64,000 bases of DNA from an uncultured Clostridia bacterium (GTDB lineage: Bacteria > Bacillota > Clostridia > Oscillospirales > SIG627): NCBI GenBank assembly GCA_946645685.1, contig CAMPCJ010000001.1:1167-65166 (forward strand), written 5' to 3'. The notes beneath the pieces were generated by a model. That model was not told the origin of the DNA and did no database searches. It saw nothing but the letters and a program-made list of their open reading frames with translations. Below, piece by piece: positions 18,283 to 63,976 of the stretch. Each line of letters begins with the position of its first letter. Position 1 is the first letter of the stretch. A program made the translations under genes and the position numbers.

Positions 18283-20478
18283 TTATTCTTTTTCCAGGGC
18301 GGGATTCCACACAATGCCCGGCGTGGGAATGCGGGGTTTCTTATAAACCGCGAAATCCGGATCGCCCGCCGCCACCTCCCGGCAGAGGCGCACGCCGTCG
18401 TTTTTCTTTAAGGCGACGATCTGGGCGCCGAAGCTGGTGCGCGTGGCTTTTTCCGGGAAAACGCTGGTGCGGATCACCGCCGCCTTGCCGGCTTTGGTGC
18501 AGATGAGGATCTCCTTGATCTCACCCGGCTCCAGCGCAAACATGGCGGAAACGGGGGAGGCGGTGTTAAAGGCGTTGGCGAGCTTCTTCCGGGCGGATTT
18601 CGTTTCGTAAACACTCAGGGGGAAGACCACGCCTTTCCCGCTTTCAAAAACGATGGCGAGCCGTCCCTTGTACCCGTCGGAAGGGCAGGCGTAAACGACC
18701 TTTTCCTCTTTGTCCATTCCGAGTTTGGCTGGGATGTAATCGCCCATTTCCGAAGCCTTCGTTACGGTAAAATCGCCGAATTTGGCTTTATACACCTGCC
18801 CCCGGTCCGTAAAGAACAGGAACTCTTCCCGGGAACCGCACTCCCGATCGAAAACGACCCGGTCGTTTTCCTTGAGCTTGTGCTCCGCCGCGACCATCAG
18901 GGATTTCAGCGGGATGTTCTTGAAATACCCGTCCCGGGTGATGACCGCCTGCGCCCGGTATTCCGGCTCTTCTTCTATGGGCATTTCGGCGCTTTTCTCG
19001 AATTGATACTCGATCTTGGTCTTTCGCTCCTGCCCGTATTTCTTCTTGATGTCTTCCAGCTGCTTGGCAATGTATTTGTTCATTTTCCGCGGGCTGGCGA
19101 TCAGAGCGTCCAGCTCCCGGATCTCTTTTTCCAGTCTTTCTTTTTCGCTCACCCGATCCAGGATGTATTCCCGATTCAAGTGGCGCAGCCGGATCTCGCA
19201 AATGTAGTTCGCCTGCGTCTCGTCGATGAAAAAGCCGTTCATCAAGTTGGGCACCACGTCTTTTTCACTTTCCGTTTTGCGGATGATGGCGATGGCTTTG
19301 TCGATGTCCACCAGGATCTTTTCCAGACCGTACAGCAAATGGAGTTTATCTTCTTTTTGAGATTTTTCGTGGAAGAATTCCCGCTTCAGGCATTCGCAGC
19401 GGAAGGCGTGCCACTCCGTCAGCATTTCCCGAACGCCCATCTGATGCGGGGAACCGGCGATGAGAACGTTGAAATTGCAGGGAAAACGGCATTCCAGATC
19501 CGTCGTTCGCAAAAGCTTTTTCATCACCTTGTCCGGATCGGAGCCGCGCTTCAAGTCGATCGTCAGCTTCAAGCCGTCCAGGTCGATCTCGTCCCGCACG
19601 TCGTTGATCTCCCGCAGTTTCCCTTCTTTGATCAGCTGAATGATCTTGTCAATGATCTGATCCACCGTGGTGTTATAAGGGATCTCGGTGATCACGATGC
19701 GGTTTTCCTTGGGGATGGTGTGCCAAACGGCGCGGAGGGTAAAGCCGCCCTTGCCCGTTTCATAGATCTGCCGGATCTCCTCCGGGTCGTAGAGCAGGGT
19801 ACCGCCGGTGGAGAAATCCGGCGCTTTCAGGATCTTGTACAGATCCGCTTCTTCATCCTCCATCAGAGCGATGGCGGCGTCGCAGGTCTCGTTGAGGTTG
19901 AAGGAACAGATGGAGCTGGCAAGTCCCACGGCGATGCCCGTGTTGGGACATACCATAACGTTGGGGAAGGAAGTGGGCAAAAGAGTCGGCTCCTTCATGG
20001 TGGCGTCGTAGTTGTCGATCATGTCCACCGCGTCTTTGTCGATACCGCCGAACAGCTCCGCGCAGATGGGCGCCAGCTTTACTTCCGTGTATCGGGACGC
20101 CGCGTACGCCATTTTGGAATACTGCTTGCCGAAGGTGCCCTTGGAGTCCACAAAGGGATGCAGCAGGGCTTCGTTGCCCCGGGTGAGGCGCACCATGGTC
20201 TCATAGATGGCGGCGTCACCGTGGGGATTCAGCCGCATCGTCTGCCCGACCACGTTGGCGCTCTTGGTGCGCGCGCCGGTGAGCAGACCCATTTTATACA
20301 TGGTGTAAAGGAGTTTTCGATGACTGGGCTTCATGCCGTCGATCTCCGGGATAGCGCGGGAGATGATGGAACTCATCGCATAGGGCATGTAGTTTTCCCG
20401 CAGGGTATCGGTGATGAGCTGATCCTGGATGACGGCGGGTTTCGTCGTCTTTTCCTTCGCTGCAGCTTTTCTTGCCAT
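18283..20478 (-). CDS. parC: type IIA topoisomerase subunit A (ParC/GyrA family)
   Basis: RAIPEIDGMKPSHRKLLY, catalytic-Tyr context AASRYTEVKL, HPHGD-like NPHGDAAIYE. At 731 aa it is shorter than a typical GyrA. No B-subunit gene lies next to it. Confidence 0.85.
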   Translation of the reverse strand: MARKAAAKEKTTKPAVIQDQLITDTLRENYMPYAMSSIISRAIPEIDGMKPSHRKLLYTMYKMGLLTGARTKSANVVGQTMRLNPHGDAAIYETMVRLTRGNEALLHPFVDSKGTFGKQYSKMAYAASRYTEVKLAPICAELFGGIDKDAVDMIDNYDATMKEPTLLPTSFPNVMVCPNTGIAVGLASSICSFNLNETCDAAIALMEDEEADLYKILKAPDFSTGGTLLYDPEEIRQIYETGKGGFTLRAVWHTIPKENRIVITEIPYNTTVDQIIDKIIQLIKEGKLREINDVRDEIDLDGLKLTIDLKRGSDPDKVMKKLLRTTDLECRFPCNFNVLIAGSPHQMGVREMLTEWHAFRCECLKREFFHEKSQKEDKLHLLYGLEKILVDIDKAIAIIRKTESEKDVVPNLMNGFFIDETQANYICEIRLRHLNREYILDRVSEKERLEKEIRELDALIASPRKMNKYIAKQLEDIKKKYGQERKTKIEYQFEKSAEMPIEEEPEYRAQAVITRDGYFKNIPLKSLMVAAEHKLKENDRVVFDRECGSREEFLFFTDRGQVYKAKFGDFTVTKASEMGDYIPAKLGMDKEEKVVYACPSDGYKGRLAIVFESGKGVVFPLSVYETKSARKKLANAFNTASPVSAMFALEPGEIKEILICTKAGKAAVIRTSVFPEKATRTSFGAQIVALKKNDGVRLCREVAAGDPDFAVYKKPRIPTPGIVWNPALEKE

Positions 20479-20498
20479 GTTTTGACCTTCCTTGTCTC

Positions 20499-55264: not shown

Positions 55265-56004
55265 GTCGCTATCTTTTGGAACTGTCGTTCCTGGGAACGG
55301 GCTATCACGGCTGGCAGATCCAGGATAACGCCGTCACCGTTCAGGAAAAAGTGGAGAAGGCGCTGGGCGAGCTTTTTCGGGAAAAGATCGTCGTCCACAG
55401 CTGCAGCCGCACGGACGCGGGCGTTCACGCCCGGCAGTTCTTCTGCCACTTTGACGCGGCGTATCCCTTTCCGACGGATCGTTTGCCTTACGCGCTGACC
55501 ACCCATTTGCCGCCGGATATCCGCCCCCTTTCCGCCCGGATCGTTCCGGACGGCTTTCACGCCCGTTACGATTGCCGGGGCAAAGAATATCGCTATGTGA
55601 TCGATAACAGCGTGATCGGCGACCCCTTCCTGCTGGATCGGGCGTGGCATTATCCCTTTCCTCTGGATGAAAAGGAATTGGATCAAACGGCGAAGGTATT
55701 TCTCGGTACGCATGATTTCGCCGCTTTCCGGGCGCAGGGTTCCCATGTGAAGAGTACGGTGCGTACCATGACCCGTTCCGACGTGGAGCGTGCCGGCGAC
55801 CGGGTGATCTTCACCGTGGCGGGGGACGGCTTTTTATACAATATGGTGCGGATCATGCTGGGCACCCTCATCGCGCATCAGAGAAAGAAGCTGGATCGGG
55901 AGCCTGCGGATATTTTTGAAACCGGCGACCGGACCCTGGCGGGGTTTACCGTTCCCCCCCAGGGACTGTATCTGGAAAAAGTTTTTTACGATCCGTTTGA
56001 ATGA
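55261..56004 (+). CDS. truA: tRNA pseudouridine(38-40) synthase TruA
   Basis: YLLELSFLGTGYHGWQIQ and catalytic Asp in SRTDAGVHA. GTG start overlaps the ecfT stop. Confidence 0.93.
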   Translation: MSRYLLELSFLGTGYHGWQIQDNAVTVQEKVEKALGELFREKIVVHSCSRTDAGVHARQFFCHFDAAYPFPTDRLPYALTTHLPPDIRPLSARIVPDGFHARYDCRGKEYRYVIDNSVIGDPFLLDRAWHYPFPLDEKELDQTAKVFLGTHDFAAFRAQGSHVKSTVRTMTRSDVERAGDRVIFTVAGDGFLYNMVRIMLGTLIAHQRKKLDREPADIFETGDRTLAGFTVPPQGLYLEKVFYDPFE

Positions 56005-56033
56005 CGGGCATTGCCGGAGAAAGGAGGAAAAAA

Positions 56034-57185
56034 ATGGCAGAAACATCGGTCAAAAAGACCAACGCTCTCGTGAAGAAATATCGCTTGTATAAGTATATAA
56101 CCCTGGGCGTCCTCGTGCTGTTCCTCCTTTCCGGGCTGATCTTGTTTCAAAAGGATATCACCCTGGAAAACCTGCGTCATATGGTCAAGAACGTCAATTA
56201 TATCACCGCCGGCGCCGGGGACGGATCCACCATCATGTACGACGCGGATACAGAGAACGTATATACCTCCTTCCGCGGTGACCTCGCCGTTGTCAATCAC
56301 GGCGGGATGGCACTCTATGACCGGGCGGGAAACGCCATTCTGACGGATTCCTTCAATATGACCAGCCCTGTTTCGGAGGCGGGAGAAAAGTTTTTGATCG
56401 TTTACGATCTGGGTGGGTATAATCTGAAAGTGTATAATTCCTTTTCACTTCTGCACGAGGAAACGTACGATTACCCCATCCAGTCGGTATCCGTTAACGC
56501 CGCGGGCTACTACTGCGTCGCGACCGCTCAGCGTTCCTACCACGCCGCCGTTGTCGTGTATAACGATGATTTCAAAGAGGTCTTTCGTTGGCTCAGCGCG
56601 GAAAAATTTGTCACGGACTGCGTGCTGACGGATACGGAGGCGCTGTTCATCACCACCATCCGCGTGGAGGAAGGCGATCTGGTGGGGGAAGTGGTAGAGT
56701 TGAAGGTGGGGAGAGACGAGGTCGTTTCATCCTATGAATTGGCGGACGAGATGCCTGTGGATATCGCGTGGACGCGCCGGGGCGTTTTGTACCTGACGGA
56801 TTCCTCGCTGCGGTTTCTGAAAGACGGCGTGGAGCAGAACGCCACGACCTTTTCCAATCGCTCCCTGGAGAAAGCCGTTATGGGCACCTCGCTCTGTGTA
56901 GCGGCACAAAACGAACTTTCCGTTGGCGTTTCCGTTAAACTTCGTTTGTTTGATCGGGAAGGGCGGGAGATCGTTTCCCGGGACTTTTCCGCGCAGATCC
57001 AGGATCTGGAAGTGTACGAGAACCAGGTGTTTATATTAACCTACAACCATTTGTACCGTCTGTCTGCGGACGGGGCTTGGTCGGAATTCGATATCGACGG
57101 GGATTATTCCGCCCTTGCCATCTTAGGGCAGGATACCGTGGCGTTGTGTTCGGACGCGAAAGCGGAGATCAAGGTCCTGTCGTGA
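56034..57185 (+). CDS. hypothetical membrane-anchored protein (single N-terminal TM, beta-rich ectodomain)
   Basis: Strong RBS (AAAGGAGGAAAAAAATG) and TM helix ITLGVLVLFLLSGLILF. I cannot confirm any family. Confidence 0.6.
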   Translation: MAETSVKKTNALVKKYRLYKYITLGVLVLFLLSGLILFQKDITLENLRHMVKNVNYITAGAGDGSTIMYDADTENVYTSFRGDLAVVNHGGMALYDRAGNAILTDSFNMTSPVSEAGEKFLIVYDLGGYNLKVYNSFSLLHEETYDYPIQSVSVNAAGYYCVATAQRSYHAAVVVYNDDFKEVFRWLSAEKFVTDCVLTDTEALFITTIRVEEGDLVGEVVELKVGRDEVVSSYELADEMPVDIAWTRRGVLYLTDSSLRFLKDGVEQNATTFSNRSLEKAVMGTSLCVAAQNELSVGVSVKLRLFDREGREIVSRDFSAQIQDLEVYENQVFILTYNHLYRLSADGAWSEFDIDGDYSALAILGQDTVALCSDAKAEIKVLS

Positions 57186-57916: not shown

Positions 57917-58534
57917 ATGGCAGTATTTAAAAAAGAACAGATCCCCAATTACATTTCTATTTTTCGCATCATCTTGATCCCGCTCTACGTGTTGTTCTTT
58001 TTTGGGATCATCCCGTCGTTTGACAGCCTGATCTCGTCCGGCATCATCTTCTTTGTGGCTGGCGTCAGCGACCTGGTGGACGGGTATCTTGCCCGAAAGA
58101 ACAACTGGATCACGGATCTGGGAAAGTTGCTCGATCCCTTCGCGGACAAGATGATGGAGCTGACCATCAACATCTGCATGGCGATCCGTTTTCAGGGGGC
58201 GTTCATCATTCTCGCCGGCTTTACCATTCTGAAGGAAGCCGTGATGATCGTGGGCGCATACATCATTTTGAAGCACGGAAAGATCGCCGTCTCCAGCGTT
58301 TGGTACGGCAAGGCGGCTACCTTCGCGTGGTTTTTGACCGTTTTCTCCGTGAGTTTTATCCCGGCGGCGGCGCCGCTGCGGCAATATTTTTGCGCCGTTC
58401 TCATCGGATTTATGATCTTTGCCTTCGTTATGTACGTCATCCATTTCAAGGATGCCATCGCCAAGACCTGGGCAGAGCTTCACAAAGATAAAGAAACGAA
58501 TGCCTCGCAGGAAGAGGCGGAGGAAATCGAATGA
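57917..58534 (+). CDS. pgsA: CDP-diacylglycerol--glycerol-3-phosphate 3-phosphatidyltransferase
   Basis: CDP-alcohol phosphatidyltransferase motif SDLVDGYLARKNNWITDLGKLLDPFADK. Confidence 0.88.
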   Translation: MAVFKKEQIPNYISIFRIILIPLYVLFFFGIIPSFDSLISSGIIFFVAGVSDLVDGYLARKNNWITDLGKLLDPFADKMMELTINICMAIRFQGAFIILAGFTILKEAVMIVGAYIILKHGKIAVSSVWYGKAATFAWFLTVFSVSFIPAAAPLRQYFCAVLIGFMIFAFVMYVIHFKDAIAKTWAELHKDKETNASQEEAEEIE

Positions 58535-60810
58535 AATTGTGTTCCCGTTGCAACAAGCGTCCTGCCGTGATCTATATCAACAAGATCCAGGGGGACAAAG
58601 TATCTACCGAGGGCTTGTGTATGCACTGCGCCCGCGAAATGAAGATCAAGCCTTTCAGTGACTATATGGATCAGATGGGCATCAAGGACGACGATATGGA
58701 CGTTCTGGAAGAACAGATGGGTCATATGATGGAGGGGGTCGAGCCCGGTGAGGGCGGAATGCCTACCTTCGATCTGAAAAATCTGTTCGGCGGCAATATC
58801 GAACCCACCGAAGCGGAAAACGACGCGGTGGAGAAAGAGGACGCTTCCGAAGATCAAAAGGAAGAGGGCGAAAAGAAGAAAAAGAAAAAGCACGGCAAGA
58901 TGCTGGACACCTATTGTCTGGATCTGACCGGGCGCGCCTCGGAAGGCAAGCTGGACCGGGTGATCGGGCGTGAAGCGGAGCTGGATCGGGTGATCCAGAT
59001 CCTTTGCCGCCGTCAAAAGAACAATCCCTGTCTCATCGGTGAGCCGGGTGTGGGCAAGACCGCCATCGCGGAAGCGCTGGCGTCCCGCATCGCGGAGAAA
59101 AAAGTACCTTACCGGCTTCTGAACAAAGAGGTCTTCCTGCTGGATCTTACGGGACTCGTGGCGGGCACGCATTTCCGCGGGCAGTTTGAAGGACGAGTCA
59201 AGAGCCTGGTGGAAGAGATCAAAAAACTGGGCAACGTGATCCTGGTCATCGATGAGGTGCATACCATCGTGGGCGCCGGGGATTCCGAAGGAGGCATGAG
59301 CGCCGCCAATATTTTAAAGCCCGCCCTTTCCCGGGGTGAGATCCAGCTCATCGGCGCCACCACACTGGCGGAATATAGGAAGTACATCGAAAAGGACCAG
59401 GCGCTGGAGCGCCGCTTCCAGCCGGTCATGGTGGAGGAGCCCAGCGTAGAGAAGACCGTGGAGATCCTGAAGGGCGTTAAGAAATACTACGAGACCTACC
59501 ACGGCTTGCGGGTGCCGGATCGTATCCTGCGCACTACCGTGCTTCTGTCCGAGCGGTATATCACCGACCGTTTTTTGCCGGATAAAGCCATTGATATTCT
59601 GGATGAGGCCTGCGCCAAAAAGAATATCGACAGCGACGTGATCAACCGTCTGGACGCCTTGAAGGATGAAATGGAACGGGAAAAGAAGGAGCGGGAGGAG
59701 CTGGAGGCAAAGTCCGACCCGGACGACGCCACCTACGCCCGTATGGCGGAGCTGAAGGTCAGCGAAGCCCGGCAGGCGGAAGAGTTTGAAAGCCTGTCCC
59801 GCCGCCGGGACGGGATCGAGATCACCGTGGAGGACGTTGCCCGGGTCATCGAATCCTGGACGGGCATTCCCGCTTCCAGTATTTCCGAAAATGAATTTGA
59901 AAAGATCGCCGGATTGGAAGAGGAATTGAAGCGGCACATTATCGGGCAGGATAAGGCGGTGAGCGCCGTTTGCCGTGCCATCAAGCGCCACAGAGCCGGG
60001 ATCTATATAAAGAAAAAGCCCGCAAGCTTTATCTTTGCGGGACCCACCGGCGTGGGGAAAACCGAGCTTGTCAAGCAGCTGGCGATGCAGCTCTTCGATA
60101 AGCCCGAGTCTTTGATCCGGCTGGATATGTCCGAGTTTATGGAGAAGCACTCCGTCTCCCGGATCATCGGCTCTCCTCCCGGATACGTGGGCTATGACGA
60201 CGCGGGGCAGTTGACGGAAAAGATCCGCCGCAAGCCTTATTCCGTGGTGCTGTTCGACGAGATCGAAAAGGCGCACCCCGACGTTTTGAACATCCTTTTG
60301 CAGATCCTGGACGAGGGAAGGATCACGGACGCTCACGGCAAGGAAGTCAATTTTGAGAACACTGTGATCATTATGACGACCAACGCCGGCGCCAACGCGG
60401 GAAGCGTTGTTTCCGGCTTTGGCGAGAGCGGTGTGGAAACGGAAGAGAAGCGGACGATGAAAGGGCTGGAAAGTTTTCTCCGTCCCGAATTCATCAACCG
60501 CGTGGATGAGATCATCACCTTCTCCCACCTCACCCGGGAGGATTTCCGGGGGATCGCTCTTTTGCGCTTGAACGATTTGAAACAGAGTATGGAAGAGAAG
60601 GGGATGGAGCTTCGCTTTGACGACAAGGTGGTCGTTTTCGTGGCGGAGAAGTCCTACAGTGAAAAATACGGCGCGCGGAACATGGCGCGGTTTTTGCAGA
60701 CCGAAGCGGAAGACCGCATCGCCCAATGCGTTATCGATCACTATTTGGAGAAGCCCTCCGCCATACGTCTTTCCGTCAAAGACGACCATTTGGAAGCGAT
60801 TCCGGAGTAA
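58531..60810 (+). CDS. clpE: two-AAA+ Clp/Hsp100 ATPase with N-terminal zinc ribbon (ClpE-like)
   Basis: N-terminus MKLCSRCNKRPAVIYINKIQGDKVSTEGLCMHCAREM (CxxC...CxxC) in place of a Clp_N repeat. D1 GEPGVGKTAIAEAL, D2 GPTGVGKTELVKQLA, a short coiled-coil M-region, and VSGFGE as a possible ClpP-docking loop. ATGA overlap with pgsA. Confidence 0.85.
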   Translation: MKLCSRCNKRPAVIYINKIQGDKVSTEGLCMHCAREMKIKPFSDYMDQMGIKDDDMDVLEEQMGHMMEGVEPGEGGMPTFDLKNLFGGNIEPTEAENDAVEKEDASEDQKEEGEKKKKKKHGKMLDTYCLDLTGRASEGKLDRVIGREAELDRVIQILCRRQKNNPCLIGEPGVGKTAIAEALASRIAEKKVPYRLLNKEVFLLDLTGLVAGTHFRGQFEGRVKSLVEEIKKLGNVILVIDEVHTIVGAGDSEGGMSAANILKPALSRGEIQLIGATTLAEYRKYIEKDQALERRFQPVMVEEPSVEKTVEILKGVKKYYETYHGLRVPDRILRTTVLLSERYITDRFLPDKAIDILDEACAKKNIDSDVINRLDALKDEMEREKKEREELEAKSDPDDATYARMAELKVSEARQAEEFESLSRRRDGIEITVEDVARVIESWTGIPASSISENEFEKIAGLEEELKRHIIGQDKAVSAVCRAIKRHRAGIYIKKKPASFIFAGPTGVGKTELVKQLAMQLFDKPESLIRLDMSEFMEKHSVSRIIGSPPGYVGYDDAGQLTEKIRRKPYSVVLFDEIEKAHPDVLNILLQILDEGRITDAHGKEVNFENTVIIMTTNAGANAGSVVSGFGESGVETEEKRTMKGLESFLRPEFINRVDEIITFSHLTREDFRGIALLRLNDLKQSMEEKGMELRFDDKVVVFVAEKSYSEKYGARNMARFLQTEAEDRIAQCVIDHYLEKPSAIRLSVKDDHLEAIPE

Positions 60811-60815
60811 GCGGA

Positions 60816-63776
60816 ATGAATCTGCTTGAAGTCGATCTGGAGAAGCTGATCAGCATCCTGGGCACGGATATCCGTCTCGGGCTCACCGGAGAGCAGGTCC
60901 TTCGCAACCGACGGGAATTCGGGGAGAACGAGCTTGTGAAAAAGAGGCATACCGCCTCCTCTCTTGCCGGGAAAATCTTCGGCGACGTGATGATGATCAT
61001 TTTCCTGGTGACAGGCTTGTTTGATTATCTCACCCATCACAACGCCGTTTCCTCGATCTGCGTGATCTTCGCCTCTCTGTTATACGCGGCGCTGGTGTTT
61101 GGCTCCTTTGCCTATATCCGGGGCGTGGAGGCGCGCATCCTGCCCTATGCGGGCGGGAAAGTACACGTGCGCCGGAACGGGCGGATCGTTTCCGTCTTGC
61201 GGAGCGAACTGGTGCCGGGGGATATCCTGATCCTGGAAAAGGGGGACGTGATCCCCTGCGACGGCGTCGTACTGGCGGAAAAGGATCTGTTCGTTTTGGA
61301 AGCGAGCGGGAAGCACACCCTTACCCCGTCTGTCAAACACAGCCACAGCCTGGTCAGCGCCGATGACAACGGCGTTTATCGGGATTGTCTCGTCTACGCC
61401 GGCAGCGTGGTGCTGGCAGGAGGCGCCCGCGTGTTCGTTTGTAACACCGGGGAGAATATCGTGGGTTTGGATAATCGCTCCGTCGCCCGCCAGGCGGGGG
61501 AGGAGAGCCGGATCTTCAAGCTGGTGATGAGCCTAAAAAAAGAGATCATGCTGATTTGGGTCTTCGCCTGCTTTATCATCTTTGCCTGGGGCGTCTTTCG
61601 CGGGCAGGACGTTTTCTCCATCTTTTATTACGGCGTTGCGATGGTGGTGGCGGCGTTCCCGTCCTCCGTGGAGTATTTCTGCTCCCTTTCCGGTGCCTAT
61701 ATGAGGGATCGCCTGTTCCGCGCCGGCGCCATCCTGCGGGATCCTTCCGCCGTCGACCGGATGTGCGACGTCAACCGCGTTTTTGTCCATTCGGCGGATT
61801 TTCTGTTTCACGATAAGCCTCTTGCCGCAACGTACTTCATCGGGGATAAGGAGTATGATTTCCGGGCGGATCACGTTCCCGCCAAGCCCCTTTTGGAAGA
61901 TATGCTGCTTTCGGAAATGTCCCCGGCGTATCTGAACGATCCCAGACACAAGGATGAAAAGAACACCGAAAACGTCATCCTGTCAGCCGCCGCTCGCTGC
62001 GGTTTGCAGAAGCGCCGGCTGGAACGGGATTATCTGCACATCAAGCGTGTGGATCCGGACGGGTATCAAAAACTGTCCCGGGTCCTGGTCATGCGCTCTG
62101 AGCGATACCGGCTGATCGTCCGGGGGGATCCCCGGAGCGTTTTGGCGCTCTGCACCTCGTACCGGAGCGGGCCGGATGATCTTCCTTTGACGGAAGGGAT
62201 GACGCTCTCCATACGCGCCGCCTTTCGCCGGCTTGCCGGGAACTGTGAGCGATTTGTGGCAGTGGCGGAGCTTTCGCTTTCATCTCCTCCCGAGGGAGAT
62301 CTGATCGAATGCTGTAAGAATATGACCTATATGGGCGTTTTGGGTTTGTCCACCCCGGTCAGCGCCTCCGCGTCAGAAGCCATCAACGGCTGCGCCAAGG
62401 CGGGCATCCATACCTACCTGCTCACAGATGATTATCCCGAAACGGTCGAGTCACTTGCCAAAAGCGTGTCCATCATCCGGGAGGGAGATTATCCGGGCGC
62501 TCTGCGGTACGAGAGTTTTCTCCGGATGGATCACGGCGTCTTTGTGGCGGATGTGGAGCAGTATAAAGCCTTCTGCCGCTTCCCCGCGGAAGAAAAACGG
62601 AACGTCATTAGCTGCCATAAGAAAAACGGGAACGTGACCCTGTCTTTGACCGATACCTCGCGGGATATCCTGCCTCAGATGGAGGCGGACGTTTCCGTGG
62701 CGTCTCTGGGGGAGAGAAGTCCGGCGCTTCGCCTGAACGCGGACGTTTTGACCCGGGATAAGGATTTTGACCTGGTGCCGCTTTGCATTCGATGGTCGCG
62801 GCTGTTATATCAGAACGTGGTGCATATTCTGCAATTTCTGATCCTTTTGCAGGTATCCTTGTTCTTTTCAGTCTTTCTCAGCTTGGCGTTGAACAGGGAC
62901 ACGGTACTGCCTCTTCCCGCCATGCTTTTGGCGGGGCTCGGCGCGGCGCTGCCCTGTGTGTTCAACATCTACCACCGCCGGCCGGGTCCGGGAATGCCCC
63001 GGAAGGTGGGCGTTTTGAAAAACAGGATCAATTCTCTGCAGCTTCTGATCATCATGCCCGCCCTGGCGGGCTTGATGGGCGCGGCGGTAATGACCCTTTC
63101 CCGGCAGATCACGCTTTTTTCTTCCGGGAGCAGTGACGCGGCGGGAGGCGCCGCTCTGTTGACCTTCGTCTTTTCCGCCTGGTTTGCGTCTCTTTCCTTG
63201 AAAACGGAAGGAAATGTTTTCAGACATCTGCATCAGATCGGGAAAACGGGGCTCGTCACGCTTTTGGGAACGATCCTTGCAGCCGCCCTCGCGGTCTTCT
63301 CCCCCTTTGCCGCTTTGTATAATCCCTCCTATGAAGAATTCGGGTCGGGGCTTACCTTTGCCACCGTTTTTCTTGCGATCCTTCTTTCCCTGTTCCCGAT
63401 GCTGATCATGGAGTTTATGAAGTACCTGAAGCGGGATCGCCGTCGCGGCGCGAACCGCAAAAAACGAGAGAAAAAAGAAGCCGCCTTTTTCAAAAAGCTT
63501 GCGGACAAGCTGGCGAAGCGTAAAAAAACGCTTGCATCGGAAGAAAAGGAAAGCGCCGCTGAGGAGATCCGTCTCCCCGAAGAGCCGGAGGAAACGCCTC
63601 TCCCCGAAGAGGTGGAGGAGCCGGCGGCGGAAGAAACAACCGTTGAAAATGATCTCAAGGAATTGCTTGCGATCATTCAAAAAACGGATGATCCGGGAGC
63701 GGGCGAACCGAATGAGTCGGAAGAGCCCGCGGAAGCGGATGATCCGGAACGATCAGAAAGGAGTGAAGAAACATGA
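60816..63776 (+). CDS. P-type ATPase homolog (P2-like architecture) lacking the catalytic signature motifs
   Basis: Cation_ATPase_N-like start (LGLTGEQVLRNRREFGENEL), ELVPGDILILEKGDVIPCDG, 10-TM layout, RGDPRSVL (KGAPE-like). However, DKTGT is replaced by HSADF (61788-61805), TGES by GKHT, PEGL by PSSV, TGD by TDD, and GDGVND by TDTSRD. A roughly 150-aa Lys/Glu/Pro-rich C-terminal tail follows. Confidence 0.8.
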   Translation: MNLLEVDLEKLISILGTDIRLGLTGEQVLRNRREFGENELVKKRHTASSLAGKIFGDVMMIIFLVTGLFDYLTHHNAVSSICVIFASLLYAALVFGSFAYIRGVEARILPYAGGKVHVRRNGRIVSVLRSELVPGDILILEKGDVIPCDGVVLAEKDLFVLEASGKHTLTPSVKHSHSLVSADDNGVYRDCLVYAGSVVLAGGARVFVCNTGENIVGLDNRSVARQAGEESRIFKLVMSLKKEIMLIWVFACFIIFAWGVFRGQDVFSIFYYGVAMVVAAFPSSVEYFCSLSGAYMRDRLFRAGAILRDPSAVDRMCDVNRVFVHSADFLFHDKPLAATYFIGDKEYDFRADHVPAKPLLEDMLLSEMSPAYLNDPRHKDEKNTENVILSAAARCGLQKRRLERDYLHIKRVDPDGYQKLSRVLVMRSERYRLIVRGDPRSVLALCTSYRSGPDDLPLTEGMTLSIRAAFRRLAGNCERFVAVAELSLSSPPEGDLIECCKNMTYMGVLGLSTPVSASASEAINGCAKAGIHTYLLTDDYPETVESLAKSVSIIREGDYPGALRYESFLRMDHGVFVADVEQYKAFCRFPAEEKRNVISCHKKNGNVTLSLTDTSRDILPQMEADVSVASLGERSPALRLNADVLTRDKDFDLVPLCIRWSRLLYQNVVHILQFLILLQVSLFFSVFLSLALNRDTVLPLPAMLLAGLGAALPCVFNIYHRRPGPGMPRKVGVLKNRINSLQLLIIMPALAGLMGAAVMTLSRQITLFSSGSSDAAGGAALLTFVFSAWFASLSLKTEGNVFRHLHQIGKTGLVTLLGTILAAALAVFSPFAALYNPSYEEFGSGLTFATVFLAILLSLFPMLIMEFMKYLKRDRRRGANRKKREKKEAAFFKKLADKLAKRKKTLASEEKESAAEEIRLPEEPEETPLPEEVEEPAAEETTVENDLKELLAIIQKTDDPGAGEPNESEEPAEADDPERSERSEET

Positions 63777-63976
63777 TCGTTACAAAAGACACCATTATCG
63801 GAGAAGTGCTGGACGCAGACGTGGAGACCGCGCCTTACTTCCTGGAGATCGGGATGCACTGCCTGGGCTGTCCCGCGTCCCGGGGCGAGTCCATCGAGGC
63901 GGCTTGCGCCGTCCACGGCACCGATCCCGCTCAGCTCGTCGAGAAGCTCAATGCCCACTTCGCCGACAAGGCGTAA
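63773..63976 (+). CDS. DUF1858-like small redox-disulfide protein (hybrid-cluster-protein-associated type)
   Basis: 67 aa with ...APYFLEIGMHCLGCPASRGESIEAACAVHG... (CxxC). AAAGGAG RBS. ATGA overlap with the upstream ATPase-like gene. Confidence 0.7.
   Translation: MIVTKDTIIGEVLDADVETAPYFLEIGMHCLGCPASRGESIEAACAVHGTDPAQLVEKLNAHFADKA

Follow-up and report, generated by a model that had tools for sequence, protein, structure and literature searches.

A probable pseudoenzyme with the fold of a P2-type ATPase, encoded beside a ClpE-like gene in uncultured Clostridia

Background

What could a membrane protein do that has the architecture of an ion pump throughout and none of the residues by which such a pump works? 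The question is raised by a gene in a 64,000-nucleotide (nt) stretch of DNA from an uncultured Clostridia bacterium (assembly GCA_946645685.1, contig CAMPCJ010000001.1, positions 1,167 to 65,166; "the window" in what follows is this whole stretch). The gene (60816-63776, + strand, as are all features of this gene and of its two immediate neighbours given below) codes for a 986-amino-acid (aa) degenerate homologue of P2-type ATPases, which we call here the pseudo-pump, and which was characterised from its open reading frame (ORF), its Pfam and NCBIfam matches, its match in the PDB, an AlphaFold2 (AF2) model and Foldseek. Few membrane enzymes are understood as well as the P-type ATPases, whose signature motifs are taken to be universal. 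We think it probable that the gene product is a paralogue of the P2A-type (LMCA1/SPCA/PMR1-like) cation pumps that is catalytically dead and maintained by selection, and we propose for it a non-enzymatic role.

Fold and superfamily

Judged by homology and by its predicted fold, the pseudo-pump is a member of the P-type ATPase superfamily. Pfam finds in it E1-E2_ATPase (4e-21) and Cation_ATPase_N (4e-9), while the matches to Cation_ATPase_C and Cation_ATPase stay under their cut-offs and the scan gives no match to the hydrolase family PF00702. The closest NCBIfam model is that of the PMR1-type Ca2+-ATPases (TIGR01522, E 2.8e-39). The equivalog cut-offs are all missed by a factor which is, in round figures, at least 5 (134.6 bits vs 798.3 for TIGR01522, 95.7 vs 703.4 for the SERCA-type TIGR01116, 104.8 vs 507.05 for the PMCA-type TIGR01517), so that the protein does not qualify as an equivalog of the P2A Ca2+-ATPases; the broad subfamily model TIGR01494 alone is passed (92.8 bits, cut-off 62.3). 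Of the proteins of solved structure, Listeria LMCA1 (6zhf, E 6.5e-33) and human SPCA1 match its sequence best.

The AF2 model, built from a 68-sequence alignment, has a mean predicted local distance difference test score (pLDDT) of 83 and a predicted template modelling score (pTM) of 0.77. It contains ten transmembrane (TM) helices together with the actuator (A), phosphorylation (P) and nucleotide-binding (N) domains, and is disordered solely at the far C-terminus (pLDDT <50 for residues 912-945 and 956-986). The top Foldseek matches in the PDB are exclusively P2 ATPases (SPCA1, LMCA1, Na,K-ATPase and SERCA, with E from 1e-42 to 1e-38), the best TM-score being 0.62, to SPCA1 in the CaE1 state. 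The whole fold, from the N-terminal segment through the A, P and N domains to the ten TM helices, thus appears to have been retained, and Pfam, the model and Foldseek agree in this with the initial annotation of this DNA, which had described a P2-type architecture with a Cation_ATPase_N-like start and ten TM segments.

Catalytic and cation-site residues

For the comparison of motifs the protein was aligned to LMCA1 with HMMER and to 13 canonical P2 ATPases with MAFFT. At the former phosphorylation site (VHSADFL, aa 324-330, 61785-61805) the canonical ICSDKTGTLT has become VFVHSADFLF, with His325 opposite the phospho-Asp. The A domain (aa 113-231, 61152-61508; 3.0 bits per column) contains ELVPGDILILEKGDVIPCDG and the former TGES loop, now SGKHT (aa 164-168, 61305-61319), from which the catalytic Glu is missing; the alignment of this loop is ambiguous (SGKH, KHTL or TLTP may stand opposite TGES), and every one of these alignments is without Glu at the catalytic position. 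The KGAPE motif of the N domain is replaced by RGDPR (aa 436-440, 62121-62135); in the family described below Gly437 is invariant, and 90% of the members have Arg at the place of Lys515. TGD reads TDD (aa 537-539, 62424-62432), a Gly to Asp change that is common to the degenerate groups, and GDGVND reads TDTSRD (aa 612-617, 62649-62666), so that the equivalents of Asp703 and Asp707, which coordinate Mg2+, are gone.

The transport site has fared no better. In M4, PEGL is replaced by PSSV (aa 282-285, 61659-61670); the model retains the helix break at 281-283, and the equivalent of E309 is Ser in the window protein and Asp in most of the family. In M5-M6 (aa 653-720, 62772-62975; model helices 653-693 and 700-719) the alignment gives Q for N768 (Q679), L for E771, G for N796, G for T799 and A for D800. 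What is left of the cation motifs is PSSV in M4, QVSL in M5 and G-L-G-A in M6, which do not make up a canonical P2A cation site.

None of the features of a functional P-type ATPase (the Asp of DKTGT, the Glu of TGES, TGD and GDGxND together with a PF00702 match) is therefore found in the pseudo-pump. A phosphorylation motif displaced to another place in the P domain is ruled out, since neither the protein nor the 64-kb window contains DKTG anywhere. The residue at the phospho-acceptor position is N, H or D in the family, and in the wider clade also E, P, G or S. The equivalents of K684 (K594) and of D627 are largely retained in the family; those of F487 and R560, the N-domain contacts to adenine and phosphate, are poorly conserved, and nucleotide binding has for this reason probably been lost as well. 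The idea that the protein still binds nucleotide is not supported by these alignments.

P-type ATPase enzymology has established that such an enzyme cannot do without any one of the acceptor Asp, the TGES Glu and the Mg2+ ligands, and D351N or D351E abolishes activity in the characterised enzymes (see also PMC13466520). Since all of these are lost here, the pseudo-pump is very unlikely to be a pump or an ATPase, and we infer that it could neither run the Post-Albers (E1P/E2P) cycle nor occlude Ca2+ in the canonical manner. The initial annotation had read the catalytic signatures as replaced throughout, had counted RGDPR, as a KGAPE-like motif, to the retained architecture, and had concluded that the E1P/E2P cycle could not be run. 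The alignments bear out each of the substitutions and add the loss of the cation site, and the conclusion gains support from the family-wide occurrence of the substitutions and from the lack of a DKT elsewhere in the P domain.

Family, distribution and selection

Is this a single decaying gene, or a lineage? A search of 5.8 billion proteins gives a family of about 55 clusters (P0001-P0055), with identities from 99% down to 26% and with intact ORFs of 855-1001 aa. The score falls sharply from 270 bits in the family to 171 bits for canonical ATPases, and PF00702, present in every canonical match, is matched in none of the 55 clusters. The substitutions are shared: in the family consensus TGES becomes TGRR, PEGL becomes P(D/S)(S/A)(I/V/M)E, DKTGT becomes (N/H/D)S(S/A)(D/E)Y, KGAPE becomes RG(N/D/E)P, TGD becomes LLTDDYPET, and GDGVND becomes LT(G/D)G.YD.LPQMESD(I/V)S. 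Dozens of residues are invariant in the family and lacking in canonical pumps, among them the N-terminal MNLLE, Cys148, Tyr188, Cys191, Cys209, Asn210, Asn220, Trp248 and Asp314. The three cysteines (61257-61259, 61386-61388 and 61440-61442) all lie in the A domain, where canonical pumps have Ala, Asn and Thr/Ala instead; they are mostly missing in group 2 of the wider clade, and in the query family, where they are invariant, a metal or disulfide site may be built from them.

The N-terminus also settles where the gene begins. Because M-N-L-L-E (60816-60830) is invariant in all 54 family sequences compared, we place the start at ATG 60816 and reject the upstream ATG 60726. It may be added that this invariance holds in a family that falls to 26% identity; these five residues could be a recognition tag, or they could be constrained by translational coupling to clpE.

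The family is carried by 8 of 185,579 GTDB species representatives, all of them metagenome-assembled genomes (MAGs) named "Eubacteriales bacterium" or "Clostridia bacterium", several from ruminant rectum or rumen. Every full-length copy among them is intact, and three of the loci end at contig borders. Among the other loci retained from this search 70 of 71 have DKTG; the exception, L036 (3584-6469, from an Anaerolineales MAG), is a 962-aa P-type ATPase ORF without a DKTG or TGES string that has kept GDGxND and lies outside the Clostridia clade.

The ratio of non-synonymous to synonymous substitution rates (dN/dS) has to be read with the caution that most pairs are saturated at synonymous sites, the sole unsaturated pair being L006-L012 (dS 0.54), for which it is 0.063 in the pseudo-pump, 0.034 in Clp, 0.076 in PgsA and 0.047 in CvpA. 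The remaining pairs give 0.07-0.22, near the values of the neighbouring genes (window against L001, for example, 0.19 in the pseudo-pump and 0.18 in CvpA). The protein evolves quickly, like the neighbouring membrane proteins CvpA and DUF5711, its identity between loci being 24-61% where that of the neighbouring Clp is 59-92%. Constraint is uneven along the chain: about 3.0 bits per column in the N-terminus, the A domain and the P domain, 2.4 in the N domain, 2.2 in M7-M10 and about 0.7 in the C-terminal tail. As the N-terminus and the A and P domains are the most constrained parts, we suggest that the headpiece serves as a binding or conformational module.

These data leave little doubt, as far as sequences can tell, that the pseudo-pump is functional and maintained by purifying selection. 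Taken operationally, on the same sequence evidence, a protein whose catalytic residues are lost across orthologues that remain under purifying selection is a pseudoenzyme. The initial annotation had favoured such a candidate over a decaying gene; with about 55 intact clusters, shared substitutions, dN/dS of 0.06-0.22, and neither frameshifts nor relaxed selection among the orthologues, this choice is vindicated. That the gene is a decaying relic of a Ca2+-ATPase can be rejected on the intact ORFs, the dN/dS values and the family-specific invariants. To be fair to this explanation, the fast evolution (24-61% identity vs 59-92% for Clp) would suit it; the intact ORFs of the family and of the three deep groups described next, together with a fold that is confidently predicted, make it hardly conceivable.

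A wider degenerate clade

The finding is larger than it was first taken to be, as it concerns one ancient conserved clade and not a single odd gene. In a profile search of 1.84 billion representatives at 50% identity the query family has about 11 representatives, at 510 bits or more, and further degenerate groups come directly below it. Among the 147 best representatives, 45 are without canonical motifs, the degeneration being complete in 35. These fall into four groups: the query family (group 1), a group with VMCDK.TAFP for ICSDKTGTLT (group 2), one with PKEG or PTRD (group 3), and P0322 with P0325 (group 4). Groups 2-4 (P0249-P0256, P0258, P0309, P0317, P0322, P0325 and others; loci L171-L176) share some 20-24% identity with the window protein; a search with them adds about 50 clusters, of which the named ones are all MAGs.

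The four groups are monophyletic in 100 of 100 neighbour-joining bootstraps, and in 99 of 100 when the columns conserved in canonical pumps are left out, figures that might be inflated by long-branch attraction. They have derived states in common (xDD for TGD, and Gly for Asn796 in M6). The five loci recovered for groups 2-4 also share the chromosomal position of the family, and in all three with readable upstream sequence a ClpE-like gene stands directly upstream. In group 2 (L172) the order is ecfA-ecfA-ecfT-truA-DUF5711-cvpA-Clp-[X]-DUF1858-GDPD-mscL, X being the pseudo-pump; in group 3 (L175) the C-terminus of a Clp protein is encoded directly upstream of it; and group 4 (L176) has ecfT-truA-DUF5711-cvpA-pgsA-Clp-[X]. 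Between the window and L172, identity is 57% for EcfT, 59% for Clp, 49% for TruA, 24% for the pseudo-pump and 25% for DUF5711. Because clade, derived states and locus are shared, we regard the groups as positional orthologues of one ancient dead pump. If this is correct, catalysis was probably lost a single time, early on among a clade of Clostridia (uncultured, from the gut and other anaerobes), and the inactive protein would afterwards have persisted for long at one chromosomal position, DUF5711-cvpA-(pgsA)-clpE-[pseudo-pump]-(DUF1858), evolving fast under purifying selection.

Besides these, ten representatives are partly degenerate P-type ATPases (P0260, P0261, P0283, P0292, P0294, P0298, P0300, P0305, P0347 and P0352); some have kept DKTGT and carry GESVDD, GNGVGD or GETVDD for GDGVND, others have GKTET or DTTGT for DKTGT. 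They may be intermediates or independent cases of catalytic loss.

The ClpE-like neighbour and the gene string

Which neighbours has the dead protein kept? Immediately upstream lies the gene (58531-60810) of a 759-aa double-AAA+ unfoldase, with the Pfam domains AAA_2, AAA, AAA_lid_9 and ClpB_D2-small. Its sequence shows a CxxC...CxxC zinc ribbon at the N-terminus, a VSGF motif resembling a ClpP loop and, at aa ~95-122, a long linker that is first acidic and then Lys-rich. We tentatively take it to be a ClpE rather than a ClpC from its resemblance to the ClpE of B. subtilis. Its ATG overlaps the pgsA stop (ATGA, 58531-58534), its stop codon TAA (60808-60810) is followed after 5 nt by the pseudo-pump ATG, and the GGAG ribosome-binding site of the pseudo-pump (60804-60807, 8 nt before the ATG) lies within its last codons. 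The whole string cvpA-pgsA-clpE-X-DUF1858 is tightly packed in the window, with gaps of at most 17 nt.

A ClpE-like gene stands directly upstream of the pseudo-pump in 17 of the 18 informative loci, across the four deep groups. In 6 of the 7 loci with called boundaries or read sequence (the window, L001, L002, L004, L005 and L006; L003 has no Clp) the clp stop and the pseudo-pump start overlap, abut or are separated by 5 nt or less; in other groups the gap is wider, at 36 nt (L172), 72 nt (L175) and 420 nt (L176). The association does not hold in the other direction. No pseudo-pump was found in the available downstream sequence of 17 full-length ClpE orthologues of similar divergence from other Clostridia (L091-L107, 48-62% identity), some of which retain cvpA or pgsA upstream of clpE. 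The pseudo-pump is therefore best seen as an addition to an older cvpA-pgsA-clpE string, and the notion that ClpE requires it can be rejected.

Internal promoters and terminators were sought within the cluster and do not exceed shuffled expectation, and there is no CtsR operator close to the clpE cluster. Since no such element stands out, the string is consistent with one long housekeeping transcript. The initial annotation had proposed a cvpA-pgsA-clpE-like-X-DUF1858 transcription unit, with the 5-nt gap after clpE, an ATGA overlap between X and the DUF1858 gene, and a ribosome-binding site AAAGGAG for the latter. Reading of the sequence confirms all three junction details, and the unit itself is consistent with the tight junctions, the conserved synteny and the lack of a convincing internal promoter or terminator.

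Some further observations on the surroundings can be recorded here. In the string, cvpA always comes after the gene of a DUF5711 (PF18975) protein (window 56001-57185, with equivalents in L001-L176), which has about 390 aa and a TM segment at its N-terminus and evolves as fast as the pseudo-pump; in L176 a Y1 transposase-like gene (1361-1801, IS200-type, a faint match) lies between truA and DUF5711. Over the window as a whole, sequences resembling a CtsR operator, GGTCAAANNNGGTCAAA, with 3 mismatches or fewer, occur 16 times where 6.5 are expected; all have 3 mismatches, and two of them overlap at 20471-20497 on the - strand. Rfam finds no family at its gathering score in the 64 kb (no tRNA, rRNA, riboswitch or leader), which is unusual for such a length.

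The DUF1858 mini-protein and the C-terminal tail

Downstream follows the gene (63773-63976) of a 67-aa protein with a CLGC motif. The initial annotation called it DUF1858-like, and both PF08984 (9e-20; 70.9 bits, cut-off 32.2) and TIGR03980, the "redox disulfide" family (3e-25; 87.9 bits, cut-off 44.95), confirm this; the closest solved structure is 2k53 (1.2e-21). Its start codon and the stop codon of the pseudo-pump overlap in the ATGA at 63773-63776, and AAAGGAG at 63757-63763 is its ribosome-binding site. The overlap is not conserved within the family; in L172, in a different downstream context, the two genes overlap by 14 nt.

The initial annotation also held the two proteins to be coupled, and here the data pull in two directions. 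A DUF1858 gene lies directly downstream of the pseudo-pump in 18 of 20 loci, and none lies within 4 kb of any of 70 canonical ATPase loci; the gene is kept even beside group 2. On the other side, DUF1858 mini-proteins form more than 7,700 clusters, which makes them over 100 times more widespread than the pseudo-pump; Ruminococcus and relatives, other Oscillospiraceae-like genomes among them (L087-L090), have a conserved DUF1858-trmK-NIF3 block without any ATPase; and no DUF1858 gene was found beside groups 3 and 4. The adjacency therefore stands, while the case for a dedicated partner is weakened, if not rejected, and it is doubtful that the pseudo-pump works with DUF1858. The linkage to ClpE is at least as strong, and the ClpE-like gene, to which the initial annotation gave no more than the place of context, is the more constant neighbour. 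In L087 and L088 (8001-9778), it may be noted in passing, a single 481-aa fusion protein comprises TrmK and NIF3.

The C-terminal tail of the pseudo-pump (aa 871-986, 63426-63773) is basic, then acidic, Pro-rich, largely disordered and lineage-specific, being found only in the window protein, P0001, P0002 and P0003, with a poorly conserved sequence (0.66 bits per column). It measures about 116 aa, and not the roughly 150 aa of a Lys/Glu/Pro-rich tail given in the initial annotation.

Possible roles

We see the pseudo-pump as a membrane protein without enzymatic function, in which the conserved cytoplasmic headpiece would offer a docking or regulatory surface. As its partner we prefer the ClpE-type AAA+ unfoldase, whose gene lies immediately upstream and is apparently coupled to it in translation. 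The pseudo-pump might tether or regulate ClpE(-ClpP) at the membrane. That it works with ClpE at all, as a membrane scaffold or regulator, is a tentative idea. Still bolder, and unlikely as it stands, is the general form of this idea, namely that an ancient family of bacterial pseudo-P-type ATPases found a new use as partner, within the membrane, of a ClpE(-ClpP) machine. Without motor and ion site of its own, the pump fold would then anchor the AAA+ unfoldase at the membrane or present membrane or envelope substrates to it, in a logic comparable to that of the P5A dislocases with the energy source outsourced, and DUF1858 would perhaps be a thiol-based accessory in part of the clade.

Several points weigh against the picture of a dead pump kept as a partner of ClpE. 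One family member (L003) has no Clp upstream, and the 17 ClpE orthologues mentioned above do without a pseudo-pump. The adjacency to ClpE may reflect phylogenetic inertia, because the conserved ecfA-ecfT-truA-DUF5711-cvpA-pgsA-clpE string includes functionally unrelated genes. Long-branch attraction, as said, might have contributed to the monophyly of the four groups, and all members are known from metagenomes or MAGs. Finally, some members have an Asp at the acceptor position (VFVDSADYL in P0003, VAVDSSRY in P0049), the K-T-G-T being missing.

This last point speaks for a still-active ATPase or transporter with non-canonical chemistry, as do the largely retained equivalents of K684 and D627 and a TIGR01494 score above cut-off. 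We nevertheless think such an activity very unlikely: the acceptor position varies freely, K352, T353, G354, T355, the TGES Glu, D703 and D707 are lost, conservation is poor at the equivalents of F487 and R560, no cation site is left, and in characterised ATPases not even D351N or D351E is tolerated. If energy input is given up, the TM domain could in principle still serve as a passive conduit, be it an ungated ion channel or a lipid scramblase or groove. Precedents exist in the Na,K-ATPase opened by palytoxin and in the lipid groove of the P4-ATPases; small or hydrophobic residues (G, A, L) indeed stand where the charged cation-site residues were, P-(D/S)-S-(I/V) in M4 would seem superficially like the PISL of P4-ATPases, and some neighbouring genes have to do with membranes or lipids (pgsA and cvpA, with GDPD and mscL in L172). 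A conduit is quite improbable all the same, given that the TM helices, notably M7-M10, are among the least conserved parts and that constraint is strongest on the cytoplasmic domains, for which a passive pore would have no use.

Two other explanations give the protein a different partner. The pseudo-pump could serve some other membrane protein as a subunit, regulatory or structural, for instance in a heterodimer with an active P-type ATPase paralogue or with some other transporter. Pseudoenzymes often regulate their active relatives, some P-type ATPases oligomerise (dimer structures of MgtA are among the Foldseek matches), the conserved headpiece and M3-M5 would suit such contacts, and the Clp-less L003 would cause no difficulty. 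We consider this rather unlikely, as there is no active P-type ATPase gene near any of the approximately 20 loci, nor in the window. Alternatively the DUF1858 CxxC mini-protein might read or set the cysteines of the headpiece in a thiol- or redox-responsive membrane module. This would make sense of the 18 adjacencies in 20 loci (including the 24%-identical group 2) set against none in 70 canonical ones, of the ATGA overlap in the window, of the invariant A-domain Cys148, Cys191 and Cys209, and of the name "redox disulfide domain" borne by TIGR03980. The wide occurrence of DUF1858 in blocks without an ATPase, its lack beside groups 3 and 4, and the fact that the cysteine trio is not common to group 2 make it improbable in our eyes.

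Annotation and significance

The named members are annotated as "cation-transporting P-type ATPase" or "hypothetical protein" (P0021, P0254, P0392, P0397, P0433, P0251). For the degenerate members the pump name is likely a systematic misannotation, probably driven by the TIGR01494 model, whose cut-off is passed (92.8 vs 62.3 bits). It follows that metabolic and transporter inventories of gut Clostridia MAGs over-count cation pumps, and a dedicated profile would correct this. The clade also offers a system, with at least 35 representative clusters at 50% identity, one conserved locus and a constant AAA+ neighbour, in which one can ask what an A/P/N headpiece on a ten-helix bundle does when there is no turnover of ATP.

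Comparison with known systems

With the P2A Ca2+-ATPases (LMCA1, 6zhf/6zhh; SPCA1, 8iwp/7yai; the PMR1 type) the pseudo-pump shares the fold, the order of domains and the ten TM helices, as well as structural residues of the A domain (VPGD, GD.VP.D, E162, K174 and TG). It differs from them in being without DKTGT, TGES, TGD, GDGVND and a PF00702 match, in the replacement of E309, N768, E771, N796, T799 and D800, and, in the sub-clade of the window, in the added disordered C-terminal tail.

The closest described case of a P-type ATPase fold that is maintained and possibly non-catalytic is that of the P4-ATPase-guanylate cyclase chimeras of alveolates (Cryptosporidium, Plasmodium GC-beta, gregarines, Tetrahymena), in which the Asp of DKTGT and/or the Glu of the A domain is lost while the module is retained and apparently needed (PMC13466520). 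These modules are eukaryotic, of the P4 lineage and fused to a cyclase, and their degeneration is partial and lineage-specific; the pseudo-pump is bacterial, derived from P2 ATPases and stand-alone, and has lost its transport site too. Another comparison is offered by the FUPA24 fusions of the mycobacterial CtpH/CtpI type, in which, as Chan and colleagues are said to have reported in 2010, one of the P-type ATPase-homologous halves is non-functional. TCDB family 3.A.3.24 is mentioned in PMC3573892. In FUPA24, however, a functional ATPase half accompanies the degenerate one in the same fusion, whereas here a whole stand-alone protein is degenerate and forms its own clade. We found no description of a stand-alone bacterial clade of pseudo-P-type ATPases in the literature that we searched, the coverage of which is incomplete.

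In a broader sense the pseudo-pump resembles the pseudokinases, the pseudophosphatases and the iRhoms, which have homology to enzymes, have lost the catalytic residues and are under purifying selection, a combination that implies scaffolding or regulation. A stand-alone bacterial lineage maintained by selection would give the P-type ATPase fold a second, non-pumping life, as the pseudokinases did for the kinases.

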